Below, one piece after another: positions 1,040-8,112 of a stretch of 12,834 nt of DNA. Where the stretch lies: the IMG/VR virus record IMGVR_UViG_638341084_000023; one strand, written 5' to 3'. Source of the DNA: a virus (Duplodnaviria; Heunggongvirae; Uroviricota; Caudoviricetes). A model generated the notes under the pieces. It had not been told where the DNA came from. It was given only the letters and a program-made list of their open reading frames with translations, and did not search any database. Position 1 is the stretch's first letter, and each line of letters opens with the position of its first letter. A program made the position numbers and the translations under genes.

Positions 1040-2341
1040 ATGCCAGACGTTCATGCACAACTTTCTCCATCATCAGCGCATCGATGGATGCGCTGCCCAG
1101 GAAGTCTGGCGCTGGAGGCCACACAACCGGATAAAGAAACAACTTTTGCAATCGAGGGCACTGCAGCGCACGCGCTTGCTGAAAAAGTTCTACGAAACAG
1201 GCAAAGCCACCCGGAACACTACGCCGGATGCAATGTTTCTATGTTTCTCGGCTCATACCCCCTTCGCGAAAATCCTGATGATACATCTGGCCCACAGGTG
1301 GATGATGAAATGGTCGAAGCCGTTGGCCGGTATGTTGATACGGTCTGGACTCTTGCACAGAATAATGAACTATTGGTTGAACAACGTGTTGATTTCTCAC
1401 ATATAACGGGGGTGGAAGAATCTTTCGGAACTGCCGACGGCATAATCATCGCTGGTAACGAATTACAAATCCACGACCTGAAATATGGCAAAGGCGTCCG
1501 CATTGATGCAGAACAAAATGAGCAACTACAACTGTATGCTCTGGGTGCGCTCGAACAATTCAGCATGCTGTATGACTTTGAGACTGTAAGATTATTTATT
1601 CACCAGCCAAGGCTCAACCACGTTTCAGAATGGTCGTTAACCGTACAGGAACTTCAGTCTTTCGGTGAACGGGCACAGGAGGCCGCAACCAGTGCGATCC
1701 TTGTTCTCAATATTGCTGAATGCGAAGGCATTGAGACACTACCGCTGGAAAACTTCATACCTGGAGAAAAACAGTGCCGCTTCTGTAAAGCAAAAGCTAT
1801 TTGCACTGCCCAGAAAATGCAGCATTTACAAACAGCGGCCAGCGATTTTGAAGATCTGACAAAGCCTGTCAGCGAAATAATCACCAATGCCAGCGCACGT
1901 GTACCTCTGTTAACCATTGAGCAGCTTGCGGAGATCTATAGCCAGGCCGACTTTATTGAATCCTGGCTAAAGGCAGTACGGGACCGGGTTCACAATGAAC
2001 TCAATGCCGGACATCCGGTACCGGGGTTTAAACTGGTAACAGGAAAACAAGGTAACCGGGCCTGGAGTGATGAAGAGGCAGCTCGCGCACTTCTGAAGGA
2101 CCAGTTCAGGTACAAAACTGAAGAAGTATTCGACTTTAAACTTATTAGTCCCACAAAAGCCGAAAAACTTATCAAAAAGGCCAGTCCACGCCGTTGGTCA
2201 AAAGTCGAGGCACTGATAACACGAGCTGATGGTAAACCAACCGTCATTCCCGAGTCAGACCCACGCCCCGCACTCAATATCAACCCTGTAAATGATTTCG
2301 ACGACGTATCCGACGATACGCTAACCGCAGACCTCATCTGA
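1040..2341 (+). CDS. PD-(D/E)XK nuclease, DUF2800-type (Cas4/RecB-like phage exonuclease)
   Basis: N-terminal [15 protein letters not shown] is the signature I associate with DUF2800. Nuclease core D...IHDLKYGKG (D/E-x-K). Four cysteines arranged as one N-terminal Cys (RCPGS) plus [10 protein letters not shown] (C-x2-C-x5-C), as in Fe-S cluster Cas4/AddB-type nucleases. Confidence 0.8.
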
Positions 2342-2356
2342 TTTAAGGAAATACCC

Positions 2357-2905
2357 ATGAAACTGAAGCTGAACAATGTTCGTCTGGCCTTCCCGTCTCT
2401 GTTTGAAGCTAAAACTGTAAACGGCGAAGGCGATCCGCGTTTCTCCGCAGTATTTTTAATGTCTCCCAAACACCCACAACTGGAAGAAATCCGTAAAGCT
2501 ATGAAGCAGGTAGCGAAGGAAAAATGGGGAGAGAAGTGGGAGCCCATTTATAACCAGCTGGAGAAAAAACTCAATCTGTGCCTGCATGATGGTGATGAAA
2601 AAGCAGAGTATGAAGGCTTCCCCGGTAATTTCTTCCTGAATGCTGCTAACAAAGCGCGCCCAGCTGTTCTTGATCGCGATCGTTCGCCACTTATTCAGGC
2701 TGACGGACGTCCCTATGCAGGGTGCTATGTAAACGCCGTTATCGATATCTGGGCACAGGACAATAATTTCGGTAAACGCATTAATGCCTCACTCGGCGGA
2801 GTCCAGTTCCTGCGAGACGGCGATGCATTCGCTGGCGGCGGAGTGGCAAGCGCTGACGATTTCGACGATATCAGCGAAGGTGCTGATGCTGAAGCACTAA
2901 TTTAA
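2357..2905 (+). CDS. phage single-strand DNA-binding protein, DUF2815 / T7 gp2.5-like
   Basis: Starts MKLKLNNVRLAFPSLFE, typical of DUF2815. Ends in an acidic tail with aromatic residues (DDFDDISEGADAEALI), as in gp2.5-type SSBs. AAGGAA Shine-Dalgarno about 8 nt upstream. Sits immediately after the DUF2800 gene, the usual gene order. Confidence 0.7.
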   Translation: MKLKLNNVRLAFPSLFEAKTVNGEGDPRFSAVFLMSPKHPQLEEIRKAMKQVAKEKWGEKWEPIYNQLEKKLNLCLHDGDEKAEYEGFPGNFFLNAANKARPAVLDRDRSPLIQADGRPYAGCYVNAVIDIWAQDNNFGKRINASLGGVQFLRDGDAFAGGGVASADDFDDISEGADAEALI

Positions 2906-2957: not shown

Positions 2958-3587
2958 TCACTCAGGAATCTTAATCTTTCTCAATTCTTTATTTAGTTCA
3001 CAGATCTTTTTCTTAGACGGGAAAGTATCATACATCCAAAAACCAACAGTCTCTAAAACTATTATCATAACCATATACACAAGATAATTTAAAAGGCCTT
3101 CATTTTGCCCTATGGAAATAATGCAGATAATAGAAAAAAGGGTAAACAGCACAAAACACAGAAAGGAAAACAGACGACTAATAATAAATAAAAAACCTGA
3201 AAAATCAACATTAATAAAAAACACTCCGTTATCTTTCTCTATATAATTCTGAAGCTTAATCAACTGATTTATATACTGTCTTTTTTCTAATCTATTGCAA
3301 ATGTAAATAACATCTCTTCGGTTATAAGATGATTGCAATTTCAGCGCATCACGAATAATTTTATCATTTATTCTTTTTTCTATGGCACTCTTATCCTCCT
3401 CATCCAGATAACGTTCATACTTAACTAAATATAAAATTAACTTCTTAACATATTTAGGCTCTTTATACTTATAATTAAAAATGATCTTTCTTATCCAGAC
3501 TCCCATAACAATCAAACATGAAAAAATATATCCAGCTATTTTCTCCAGATGCTCTGTATGGTCAATCAAGTATTGGATCATATGCAT
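2958..3587 (-). CDS. AT-rich accessory (moron-like) gene; predicted membrane protein of unknown function
   Basis: 209-codon ORF in a region that is visibly much more AT-rich than its flanks, where stop codons would be frequent by chance. Encoded opposite to the surrounding operon. Hydrophobic segments near the N-terminus (IAGYIFSCLIVMGVWI) and two near the C-terminus (FLFIISRLFSFLCFVLFTLFSIICIISIG, LLNYLVYMVMIIVLETVGFWMY), with a K/E/Y-rich soluble middle. Confidence 0.6.
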   Translation of the reverse strand: MHMIQYLIDHTEHLEKIAGYIFSCLIVMGVWIRKIIFNYKYKEPKYVKKLILYLVKYERYLDEEDKSAIEKRINDKIIRDALKLQSSYNRRDVIYICNRLEKRQYINQLIKLQNYIEKDNGVFFINVDFSGFLFIISRLFSFLCFVLFTLFSIICIISIGQNEGLLNYLVYMVMIIVLETVGFWMYDTFPSKKKICELNKELRKIKIPE

Positions 3588-3633: not shown

Positions 3634-5697
3634 ATGTCCAATATACTATGGGGCGACCTGGAAACCTATTGCGAAATCCCTATTACGAACGGTACCCATG
3701 CGTATGCCGAAGGCGTTGAAGTGATGCTTTTCGCATGGGCTATCAACGACGGGCCAGTAAACGTGTGGGATATCACTGCCGGTGGTGGTATTCCACACGG
3801 CTTATACGAAGCAATCGCAGACCCTGAAACCCTGCTTTATTTCCATAACTCTCACTTCGACCGCACCGTTCTGCGTTATGCAATGCCGCGCCTGGCACCG
3901 CCAGTCGAACGTTGGCGCGACACAATGGTGCAGGCGCTGGCGCACGGTCTCCCGGGGTCTCTGGGGGAACTCTGCGAAGTACTAGGCGTCCCGCAAGACA
4001 AAGCGAAGGACAAAGAAGGTAAAGCGCTGATCCAGCTGTTCTGTAAGCCACGCCCGAAAAACAGCAAACTGCGCCGGGCCACCAGCAAAACCCACCCGGA
4101 AGAATGGCGGCGCTTTGTTGCTTACGCCGGACTGGATATCGAGGCAATGCGCGAAGTCTATAAACGTCTGCCGAAGTGGAATTATCAGGGGACAGAACTG
4201 GCGCTCTGGCATCGTGATCAGCAGATCAATGACCGGGGCGTCTGCATGGACGTGGAACTCGCACGCGCTGCGATCGACGCGGTAGACCAGGAACAAAAGC
4301 GCCTGGCAAAGCGTACACAGGAAATGACTGATGGCGAAGTGCAGGCAGCCACACAACGAGACGCGTTGATTAAGCACATTGTTGAATCCTACGGTGTGGA
4401 GCTACCAGACATGCAACGCAGTACTCTGGAACGTCGTATTGCCGACCCCGATTTACCATCTGCCGTGAAAGAACTGCTGGCTATCCGCCTGCAGGCCAGT
4501 ACTACCAGCACCAGTAAATACAAGGCACTGATGAAAGGCGTAAGCCACGACGGGCGCTTACGCGGTACGCTACAGTTCTGCGGGGCGTCACGTACCGGTC
4601 GTTGGGCCGGACGGCTATTCCAGCCCCAGAACCTTCCCCGCCCTTCACTAAAACAGGAACAAATAGACGAAGGCATCGAAGCACTGAAAGCCGGATGTGC
4701 AGACCTGCTGTTTGACAATATCATGGAACTAACCAGTTCAGCGTTACGTGGCTGCATTATCGCGCCAACAGGCAAAAAGCTGGTGGTAAGTGACTTGTCG
4801 AACATTGAAGGCCGTATGCTGGCATGGCTGGCGGGAGAAGAATGGAAACTGAATGCATTCAGAGAGTACGACGCCGGAACGGGTCCGGACTTATATAAAC
4901 TGGCGTATGCAAAAGCTTTCGATATTGCACCAGATGATGTTGATAAACACATGCGTCAGATCGGTAAAGTCATGGAACTCGGTCTGGGTTATGGTGGTGG
5001 TGTGTCGGCCTTCATCACTTTTGCACTGGTTTACGGTCTCGATCTCGACGAGCTGGCGAACGCCGCACTACCAAACATTCCCCGCGATGTTATCCGCGAG
5101 GCGAAAAGCTGGTACGACGAATCGGTTAAACGCAAGTCAACCTACGGGCTTTCTGAACGGGTATTTATCGCCTGCGACTCACTTAAACGTCTCTGGCGCC
5201 GGGCGCATCCCGCGACCTGTGATTTCTGGTACGAACTGGAGCGCACCGTCCGCACTGCAATCGCCACACCGCAAAAAACATTGTATTGCGGTTATCTTAA
5301 AATCCGCCGCGATGGCGCGTGGCTGCGCATACAGCTACCATCCGGACGCGCTGTATGCTACCCGTCTCCGGTTATCGAAAAAGGGAATATCACCTACATG
5401 GGGGTTAACTCTTATTCGCGTAAATGGCAACGACTCAAAACCTACGGCGGAAAGCTGGTGGAGAACATCACCCAGGCGGCCGCCCGCGACATTCTGGCCG
5501 GAAACATGCCGCTTATCGAAGATGCCGGTTACAGCATTGTGCTGACGGTACACAACGAGGTGATCACCGAAGCACCTGACACAGAAGATTTCAACGATAA
5601 AGCGCTTTCCGCGCTTCTCTCCACTGACCCCGAATGGGCGCCCGATATCCCACTGAACGCTGGCGGTTTTGAGGCGTACCACTACAAAAAAGATTGA
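3634..5697 (+). CDS. family A DNA polymerase with 3'-5' proofreading exonuclease domain (phage type)
   Basis: Exo I GDLETYCE (D-x-E), Exo II HNSHFD, Exo III YAGLD. Polymerase motif [15 protein letters not shown] (compare DYSQIELR), motif [17 protein letters not shown] (R-x3-K-x7-YG). Motif C reads VHNEV where HDE is expected. AAGG Shine-Dalgarno upstream. Confidence 0.9.
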
Positions 5698-6570: not shown

Positions 6571-6602
6571 TGGGAATAAAAACCCTATGTCATTTAAATA
6601 CC

Positions 6603-6664
6603 GGGACAGTCCGCTTTATTACCGGACTGTGCGGGAGGCTTTGCACCTTGAACAGTCCGGCGGG
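6603..6664. promoter_or_regulatory. three copies of an ACAGTCCG(G) motif (direct, inverted, direct) in the 234-bp intergenic region; candidate operator or iteron set
   Basis: GGGACAGTCCG at 6603-6613, CCGGACTGT at 6622-6630 (reverse complement) and ACAGTCCGG at 6652-6660. Copies 2 and 3 form a perfect 9-bp inverted repeat separated by 21 bp. Lies upstream of the strong-RBS gene at 6758. Confidence 0.3.
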
Positions 6665-6757
6665 TACGACCGGGCGATGCAGGTCTGGGCCAAAGCGAAC
6701 GTCGGTTTGATTTTTGTCTGATGCAGAACATGCGCGAAAAGCGTAAGGAGGTGGACG

Positions 6758-6952
6758 ATGTCTAATATCGATAATAAGGGTTGGGGGTTCCCCGCTCTGT
6801 CAAAAAAAGCACATTTCTTTAATTCGGGGGAAGCCATATCACTATGCGGAAAATGGATGTTCATAGGTATCAGGATTGATGAATGGCATGACCATCCTGA
6901 GAACTGCGCTATCTGCATGAAGAAACGCAAAAAGCAGGAAGGCGAAAGCTAA
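6758..6952 (+). CDS. small Cys/His-containing protein (possible zinc-ribbon), unknown function
   Basis: Strong AAGGAGGT Shine-Dalgarno 5 nt upstream of the ATG. Residues C30, H44, H46, C51, C54 (CGKW...HDHPENCAIC). Stop overlaps the next ATG (TAATG), suggesting coupling to the VRR-NUC gene. Confidence 0.5.
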   Translation: MSNIDNKGWGFPALSKKAHFFNSGEAISLCGKWMFIGIRIDEWHDHPENCAICMKKRKKQEGES

Positions 6953-7239
6953 TGGCCTATGAACGTGAAAACCTAATCGAAAAGCACCTCGTCGCTGAAG
7001 TAAAAAAGGCTGGCGGGGTTGCCTTTAAGTTCGTATCCCCCGGTCGCCGCTCGGTACCAGATCGCATTGTTCTGCTACCCGGCGGTCGTATCATTTTCGT
7101 TGAATGTAAATCCCCCGGCAAGCCACCACGGCCTGACCAGTTGCGCGAACACGGACGGTTGCGCGCGCTGGGCTTTACCGTAGTGGTGCTGGATAGCAAA
7201 AATCTGGAGGCCATTATTTTAAGCCGCAATAAAGGATAA
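6952..7239 (+). CDS. VRR-NUC domain nuclease (PD-(D/E)XK fold)
   Basis: About 95 aa with VPDRIVLLPGGRIIFVECKSPG (PD...E-x-K) followed by Q...G, the layout of VRR-NUC. This family is classically linked to SNF2 helicases in phages, and one lies downstream. Confidence 0.7.
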   Translation: MAYERENLIEKHLVAEVKKAGGVAFKFVSPGRRSVPDRIVLLPGGRIIFVECKSPGKPPRPDQLREHGRLRALGFTVVVLDSKNLEAIILSRNKG

Positions 7240-7251
7240 AAGACTTATGCT

Positions 7252-8049
7252 TTAATCCGTATTTTTAACACGTATTTCGAAACACCCTTTTAATTTAGCT
7301 ATTTCCTTTTTAGAGGACATGATTGTGAATCTCATCCCTTTTAAATCATTAACAAATTCAAATTTTGCGCTATTTGACTCACAATCACCAACAACAAAAC
7401 CACTACCAAATGAATTGAGCAACACTTTAGTATTACTACCATCTACCATATAATATTCGTTATTTTTAAATGCAGTAACCTTCCCGAATGTATAGCTCAA
7501 TATCAACAACGTTATCACCCCTAAAGGAAAAGCTGACTTTAGGATTTTTAAATCGATATAATAAAATACGTTCTTATACTCTGCAAGCCTCCCAAATTTT
7601 CTAATGCTCTCCATATGATGTTCGTGTCTCTTACTATGGATTGGCATGGACACCACATTGTGATAATTCAACAAAAGCATAGCAAATAATAAAATATCCT
7701 GAACACTCATCACAGAAGTTTCGGAGAAATAACCAAAAGGCCAATGAAATCCTATTATACAAATATTAGCCATTAGCATAACAACTATAAATACAATAAA
7801 TGGAACATAATATTTCCCTTTCAAATCAAACATCAACGCCGCATATAAGGCGCCGAGAAATAAAAAACTAAAAAACAAAAGCCACACAGCCGAATACAAT
7901 AGCGTATTTAAGTCTATTTTAATAAAAAGGTCTGGATAGCCATAATACGATGCAACACCTTTCTGAAAAGAATATGCCATCGCATAAGCTAACGCTGAAA
8001 ACATAGTTAATAAAGAAACTTGCTTTGTAAATATTTTCGCCAGGGGCAT
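7252..8049 (-). CDS. AT-rich accessory (moron-like) gene; polytopic membrane protein with C-terminal soluble domain, unknown function
   Basis: 265-codon ORF in a second strongly AT-rich block, opposite strand to the operon. About five hydrophobic helices in residues 10-190, then a soluble C-terminal region of about 70 aa. GGAGG Shine-Dalgarno 5 nt upstream of the ATG on the minus strand. Confidence 0.6.
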   Translation of the reverse strand: MPLAKIFTKQVSLLTMFSALAYAMAYSFQKGVASYYGYPDLFIKIDLNTLLYSAVWLLFFSFLFLGALYAALMFDLKGKYYVPFIVFIVVMLMANICIIGFHWPFGYFSETSVMSVQDILLFAMLLLNYHNVVSMPIHSKRHEHHMESIRKFGRLAEYKNVFYYIDLKILKSAFPLGVITLLILSYTFGKVTAFKNNEYYMVDGSNTKVLLNSFGSGFVVGDCESNSAKFEFVNDLKGMRFTIMSSKKEIAKLKGCFEIRVKNTD

Positions 8050-8065
8050 ACCCGCCTCCGTTAGT

Positions 8066-8083
8066 TATATATATAGAGAGAGA
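8066..8083. repeat. simple-sequence tract (TA)5(GA)4 in the 63-bp divergent intergenic region
   Basis: tatatatata gagagaga read directly, between the start of the minus-strand membrane gene (8049) and the start of the helicase gene (8113). Confidence 0.6.
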
Positions 8084-8112
8084 AGTGACCATATTCTACC
8101 ATAGGTGTATTA

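Follow-up and report, generated by a model that had tools for sequence, protein, structure and literature searches.

An asparagine in place of the motif C aspartate in the family A DNA polymerase of an Escherichia coli prophage: a probable recent null allele confined to one clone

Is a prophage DNA polymerase that reads His-Asn-Glu at motif C, where its family reads His-Asp-Glu, a dead enzyme in a decaying element or a working variant of its lineage? The question was raised by a first-pass annotation of the window, by which we mean the whole stretch of 12,834 nucleotides analysed here (bases 2-12835 of contig AAJX02000030.1), and that annotation offered both readings. We propose that the substitution, D641N, is very probably a recent null mutation in a decaying prophage, kept by drift. 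On this view the enzyme is no new type of polymerase: its family is known, and the allele is most likely one of ordinary loss of function. The features to which the argument refers are collected in Table 1.

Table 1. Coordinates of the polymerase, its motifs, the neighbouring replication genes and the interrupted integrase (positions in the window)
Feature	Position	Strand	Remarks
DUF2800 PD-(D/E)XK nuclease	1040-2341	+	Replication module
Enc34-type/DUF2815 single-strand-binding protein	2357-2905	+	Replication module
Family A DNA polymerase, 687 aa	3634-5697	+	Pfam, PHROG, AlphaFold2 model, Foldseek
Exonuclease motifs: D8, E10 (Exo I); H71-N72...F75-D76 (Exo II); Y164...D168 (Exo III)	3655-4137	+	All present
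Motif A, SDLSNIEGR, residues 386-394	4789-4815	+	Catalytic Asp D387 intact
Motif B, residues 441-456	4954-5001	+	Intact; R...K......YG type with GYGGG stretch
Motif C, V639-H640-N641-E642-V643	5548-5562	+	Family consensus VHDEV; translation, alignments
Codon of V639	5548-5550	+	
Codon of H640	5551-5553	+	
Codon AAC, Asn641	5554-5556	+	Derived base A at 5554; GAC (Asp) in all relatives checked
Codon of E642	5557-5559	+	
TIR-domain protein, 253 aa	5762-6523	+	Replication module, directly after the polymerase
VRR-NUC nuclease	6952-7239		Replication module
SNF2 helicase	8113-9507		Replication module
Integrase, 3' (C-terminal) part	9701-9959	-	Collinear with the integrase of locus L001 up to the insertion point
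IS3-family insertion sequence, 1258 bp	9960-11217	-	Boundaries by comparison with the IS-free locus L001
rve transposase of the IS3 element	9990-10856		Pfam rve and HTH_Tnp_1 matches in the element
orfA of the IS3 element	10853-11161		
Target duplications of the IS3 element, 3 bp (AAT)	9957-9959 and 11218-11220		
Integrase, 5' (N-terminal) part, severed by IS3	11221-12359	-	Pfam Phage_integrase matches

In the protein encoded by the 2064-nt polymerase ORF, a 3'-5' exonuclease domain at the N terminus is followed by a polymerase domain at the C terminus. The protein matches Pfam DNA_pol_A with 48.3 bits against a cut-off of 34.3, the 3'-5' exonuclease Pfam family weakly, and PHROG 17 ('DNA polymerase') at 3e-125. 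The AlphaFold2 model (mean pLDDT 94.4, pTM 0.90) has the Klenow fragment (1kfs, E 4e-18) as its top Foldseek match, further top matches being Aquifex Pol I, the apicoplast polymerase, phage G20c Pol I and DpoZ, all five at a probability of 1.00; Bst and Taq are also among the structural matches. The exonuclease and polymerase two-domain fold is common to the protein and to Klenow, Taq and Bst (PF00476; TM ~0.6-0.7), with motifs A and B and the His and Glu of motif C in register, whereas the sequence identity to these enzymes is ~13-16%. A further difference is that this phage-type enzyme is without a 5' nuclease domain, and its D882 equivalent is asparagine. The profile match, the fold, motif A and motif B are all those of family A (PF00476, Pol I / T7 gp5 type); the His-Asp-Glu of motif C, with the second catalytic aspartate, is replaced in the window's allele by H640-N641-E642. 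On sequence grounds, the window's polymerase is a family A member by descent and, by its motif C, a predicted catalytic-site null allele.

This assignment depends on the placement of motif C. The HNE reading of the first-pass annotation is borne out by the 687-aa translation, which has V639-H640-N641-E642; the interval given for it, 5548-5556, does contain the critical AAC codon but covers V-H-N, the HNE codons (cac aac gag) spanning 5551-5559, an offset of 3 nt. The motif A and motif B assignments made at the same time hold as well. In an alignment of 71 sequences of the polymerase family (A1), D387 and E392 of motif A and R441, G444, K445, L449 and G455 of motif B are invariant, and the motif A segment aligns with the DYSQIELR region of Klenow and Taq. 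The same alignment is consistent with the earlier view that the exonuclease motifs are intact, D8, E10, F75, Y164 and D168 being invariant and H71 and N72 at least 90% conserved. Within motif C, H640 is invariant, and at least 90% of the sequences have D641 and E642. A phmmer search against PDB sequences aligned the motif C segment of the window's protein with Taq LQVHDELVLEAP, and a family profile built from alignment A1 set its 'ltvHDEl' against Klenow 'MQVHDELV', the D882/E883 motif, in a whole-protein match with an E value of 2.7e-18. In the AlphaFold2 model, strands 634-639 and 642-648 form a beta hairpin with H640-N641 at its tip, and D387, the aspartate of motif A, lies where strand 381-388 ends. 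The annotation had located motif C by its position relative to motifs A and B; three independent lines, namely phmmer alignment, profile and modelled fold, confirm that location and make N641 the equivalent of Klenow D882 and Taq D785.

It could still be argued that the HNE triplet is an error, either of motif assignment, against which the concordance of sequence, profile and predicted fold speaks, or of sequencing or assembly, the difference being a single base in a draft genome. The accession prefix AAJX02 is that of the draft genome of the EPEC prototype strain B171 (PMC4464170). The same base as in B171 is, however, found in GCA_000250235.2, in GCA_000250275.2, in the Logan assembly of ERR3062034 and in the complete FDAARGOS_1059 chromosome. 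Its presence in independent assemblies excludes a sequencing error, and we regard an error of either kind as next to impossible. The exact 687-aa Asn641 protein is recorded on 32 contigs, and all N-allele copies are identical. Four N-allele loci are at least 99.98% identical to FDAARGOS_1059 over 16-18 kb, chromosomal flank included, so that they represent one clone. The N allele is private to a single clonal E. coli lineage that includes B171, FDAARGOS_1059 and ~30 other assemblies.

The origin of the allele can be read from its closest relatives. P0122, the commonest allele (211 contigs) of the 90% cluster to which the window's protein belongs, is identical to that protein except at residue 641, and the N allele is therefore without compensating changes. 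Of the 2064 nucleotides of the polymerase gene, DETEC-P1056 and the window disagree on a single one: gene position 1921 (window 5554) is G in DETEC-P1056 and A in the window; this agrees with the annotation's remark that the asparagine codon lies one G-to-A change from an aspartate codon. By comparison with P0122 and DETEC-P1056, D641N is one G-to-A transition, derived and recent, in a gene that is otherwise wild-type. Four Asp-allele prophages and one phage served as the reference for differences private to the lineage. Downstream of 2300, only six sites set the window apart from all four prophages: D641N, two further missense substitutions, a synonymous one and, between genes, an indel and a base change. 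The apparently private differences upstream of ~2300 were considered as mutations and rejected, most of them being mosaic or recombinant blocks common with phage vB_EcoM-606R2 and uninformative in this respect. A dense cluster of ~30 substitutions relative to the four close prophages, at ~1573-1660 in the DUF2800 gene, is likewise common with vB_EcoM-606R2; its pattern is the signature expected of a short recombinant (mosaic) patch and not of point mutation.

The annotation's other reading, a lineage-specific variant, is not supported by comparison with the relatives, nor is asparagine fixed in the clade, the closest homologues all having aspartate. The motif is VHDE in 120 of the 120 closest 90%-identity cluster representatives, which are 88-92% identical and come from Escherichia, Salmonella, Klebsiella, Enterobacter and Citrobacter. 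A diverse set consisted of the best 150 50%-identity representatives from 1.84 billion proteins, 148 of which were alignable across motif C (45-98% identical). All 148 have aspartate at the motif C column, within 146 HDE triplets, one HDD and one YDE. Asparagine at the motif C aspartate is found in none of the 268 close and alignable diverse representatives. Three deposited phages whose polymerases are 95-99% identical have GAC, namely vB_EcoM-606R2 (polymerase 98.1% identical), vB_EcoM-689R2 and vB_EcoM-611R5, and the AAC-containing 41-mer has no match in 50,697 phage records. When 41-mers centred on the codon were searched in 5,426 complete E. coli genomes, GAC was found in 145 and AAC in one, FDAARGOS_1059, so that 145 of the 146 genomes matching either 41-mer have the aspartate codon. 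Judged by this survey, Asn641 is not a feature of its clade.

The same survey bears on the proposal that Asn641 is tolerated in a functional, lineage-specific enzyme whose polymerase is active, perhaps with an altered metal preference. As a matter of general chemistry, the carbonyl oxygen of asparagine can coordinate metals. The third, acidic position of motif C varies in some family A enzymes, as in the one relative with HDD, and the Tt72 polymerase has serine at the E883 position (PMC9324360). This variation, however, concerns the neighbouring residue and never the aspartate, which is present in 268 of 268 representatives. Compensating substitutions are absent from a protein that is otherwise identical to the Asp allele, and the allele is limited to one clone and occurs in no deposited phage. 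We consider a functional variant highly unlikely.

A null allele is what the chemistry of the active site would lead one to expect. In family A polymerases both catalytic metal ions are bound by the aspartates of motifs A and C (Klenow D705 and D882), and that of motif C also touches the primer 3'-OH. Asparagine is isosteric with aspartate and weak metal ligation is still possible; a residual activity of the N641 enzyme, for example with Mn2+, is conceivable. As the equivalent of Klenow D882, the lost Asp641 would have been a ligand of the catalytic metal ions and a contact of the primer 3'-OH. A review of Bst polymerase calls the corresponding residue, D830, invariant and has it coordinate metal and bond to the 3'-OH (PMC10520511). 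In the polymerase of Thermus phage Tt72, replacement of the equivalent aspartate (D615A) leaves 4% of the activity and unchanged DNA binding (PMC9324360). Human POLG D1135A, at the same position, is polymerase-deficient and dominant-negative in cells, as is POLG D890N, an Asp-to-Asn change of the motif A aspartate (PMC1904276). We found no published measurement of an Asp-to-Asn change at exactly the motif C position of a family A DNA polymerase, and for Klenow D882N and T7 RNA polymerase D812N there was nothing usable in the literature searched. The available precedents are therefore alanine at the motif C position and asparagine at the partner aspartate. In these POLG and Tt72 mutants, as in the window's allele, a metal-binding aspartate is replaced; the mutant proteins fold, bind DNA and have lost polymerase activity. 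They are laboratory constructs, whereas the window's is a natural allele fixed in a bacterial clone. By analogy, the N641 protein would still fold and bind DNA and would probably be proficient in exonuclease and thus proofread, with little or no polymerase activity, most or all of it being gone. Loss of this activity would leave the prophage unable to replicate its own DNA.

The polymerase is the replicative enzyme of a ~43-kb temperate phage integrated next to yfhL. After the SNF2 helicase, its replication module has a small HTH protein and a tyrosine integrase abutting yfhL. In FDAARGOS_1059 the element continues with a repressor, a VapE-domain protein, antiterminator Q and lysis, terminase, head and contractile-tail genes, and this prophage is collinear with the 42.7-kb phage vB_EcoM-606R2, on which no paper was found in the literature searched. 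The FDAARGOS_1059 locus thus has the integrated phage modules, and the integrase at the chromosomal junction, of a prophage. The wild-type allele (P0122 / WP_000065476-type, as in DETEC-P1056 and IAI1) and the polymerases of phages vB_EcoM-606R2, -689R2 and -611R5 have amino acid identities of 98-99.9% (95-99% for the phages by the survey above) to the window's protein and lie in the same module of DUF2800 nuclease, DUF2815/Enc34-type SSB, PolA, TIR, VRR-NUC and SNF2 helicase. The prophages with this allele are integrated next to yfhL, as is the window's prophage; the wild-type allele and the phages differ from the window's allele in having Asp641 (GAC).

Several genes of the module are of interest in their own right. 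The TIR protein matches the Pfam CAP12/Pycsar-effector TIR family at 2.9e-31 and the PADLOC candidate defence family PDC-S35 at 6.8e-109, and it is conserved, position included, in phage vB_EcoM-606R2 and in the Asp-allele prophages. Two ORFs of unassigned function, at 2958-3587 and 7252-8049, lie on the minus strand inside the otherwise plus-strand replication module. The first has a sole match, to PHROG 10579, a family of unknown function. Pfam, PHROG and PADLOC gave no match to the second, for which there is a weak precomputed TfpB hit; phage 606R2 has two different plus-strand ORFs in the equivalent slot, which looks like a variable cargo slot.

The first-pass annotation had taken the disrupted integrase as a sign of decay. 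An IS3 element does split the window's integrase, but the lesion is strain-specific and later than the polymerase mutation. Four other N-allele loci (L001-L004) have an intact integrase of 1398 bp (465 aa) without the IS3 element, from which it follows that the polymerase mutation predates the insertion and that the two lesions are independent. Of the N-allele loci examined, the B171 contig alone has the IS3 insertion, which must therefore be very recent. Better evidence of decay lies outside the window. In FDAARGOS_1059, an IS66-family element (ISCro1) is situated inside a tail-fibre assembly gene according to the PGAP annotation. The DUF2213 head gene, a baseplate-region gene and a recombinase gene are frameshifted in the PGAP annotation of this single assembly. 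Inactivating lesions are thus present in genes of the lytic cycle or of excision, as in a defective prophage, the frameshifts coming from one annotation.

A further candidate for decay evidence was rejected. PGAP labels a short ANR family transcriptional regulator as frameshifted in FDAARGOS_1059, at 22954-23132 of locus L001, corresponding to ~6587-6765 of the window, and likewise in three of the four Asp-allele prophages examined (357900, JNEC-KY180 and IAI1; loci L008, L009 and L010). As the label extends beyond the N-allele clone, it points to an ancient lesion common to these prophages or to an artefact of annotation. The DETEC-P1056 prophage, which has the Asp allele, carries an internal stop in its DUF1073 gene (8014-9480 of locus L006). 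Decay of the copies of this prophage family seems to have been independent in different hosts.

A G-to-A transition at 5554 in one clonal E. coli lineage converted the motif C aspartate to asparagine. We hypothesise that drift preserved the mutation in a prophage whose selection as a phage had already ended or was coming to an end. The single origin of the allele, its clonal spread and the co-occurring lesions in structural genes together favour neutral decay. The annotation's suggestion of an inactivated polymerase in a decaying element is supported in this form, with a universal aspartate, no compensating changes, restriction to one clone and other lesions in the prophage. It can be asked whether the loss was instead selected, a polymerase-dead protein that binds DNA and is proficient in exonuclease benefiting the host by blocking runaway prophage replication or by poisoning superinfecting related phages with the same replisome partners. 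Every N-allele copy retains a full-length ORF that is otherwise undamaged, its exonuclease and DNA-binding motifs are untouched, and the allele has spread to at least 32 contigs. Catalytic-aspartate mutants are dominant-negative in vivo in the case of POLG D890N and D1135A (PMC1904276), and Tt72 D615A retains DNA binding (PMC9324360). Clonal descent nevertheless accounts for the spread, the loci being at least 99.98% identical. The allele has a single origin, with no comparable change in 145 complete genomes or 268 cluster representatives, and general decay would also account for the damage to structural genes of this prophage. The repressor of the lysogen should, moreover, silence the gene anyway. 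A selected loss is in our estimation unlikely. A more specific form of the idea, to which we give very little credence, is that the D641N protein acts as a natural dominant-negative replicase. Expressed at a low level from the crippled prophage, it would bind primer-templates and its DUF2800, SSB, VapE primase-helicase and SNF2 partners, and so stall incoming related phages. Were this true, the EPEC clone would gain superinfection immunity at the replication step.

Taken as neutral decay, the locus provides a clean and datable case in which a prophage decays by a single active-site missense mutation, although its broader importance is small. D641N is invisible to gene callers and annotation pipelines; PGAP names the product 'DNA polymerase' and sets no pseudogene flag. 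An intact prophage ORF need not mean an active enzyme, which is a practical warning, and the substitution suggests that replication is not to be expected of the B171-lineage prophage next to yfhL. The N641 and D641 proteins, one residue apart, form a ready natural control for the biochemistry of a widespread and uncharacterised clade of phage polymerases. Many homologues in this clade (P0138-P0284; phage hits H49, H50 and H55) are ~850-1275 aa long and align in two to four pieces, the alignment often breaking close to residues 450 and 610 of the query. An intein-containing polymerase precursor is annotated in several Salmonella phage records; inteins seem to be common in the polymerase clade, and the window's gene is without one.
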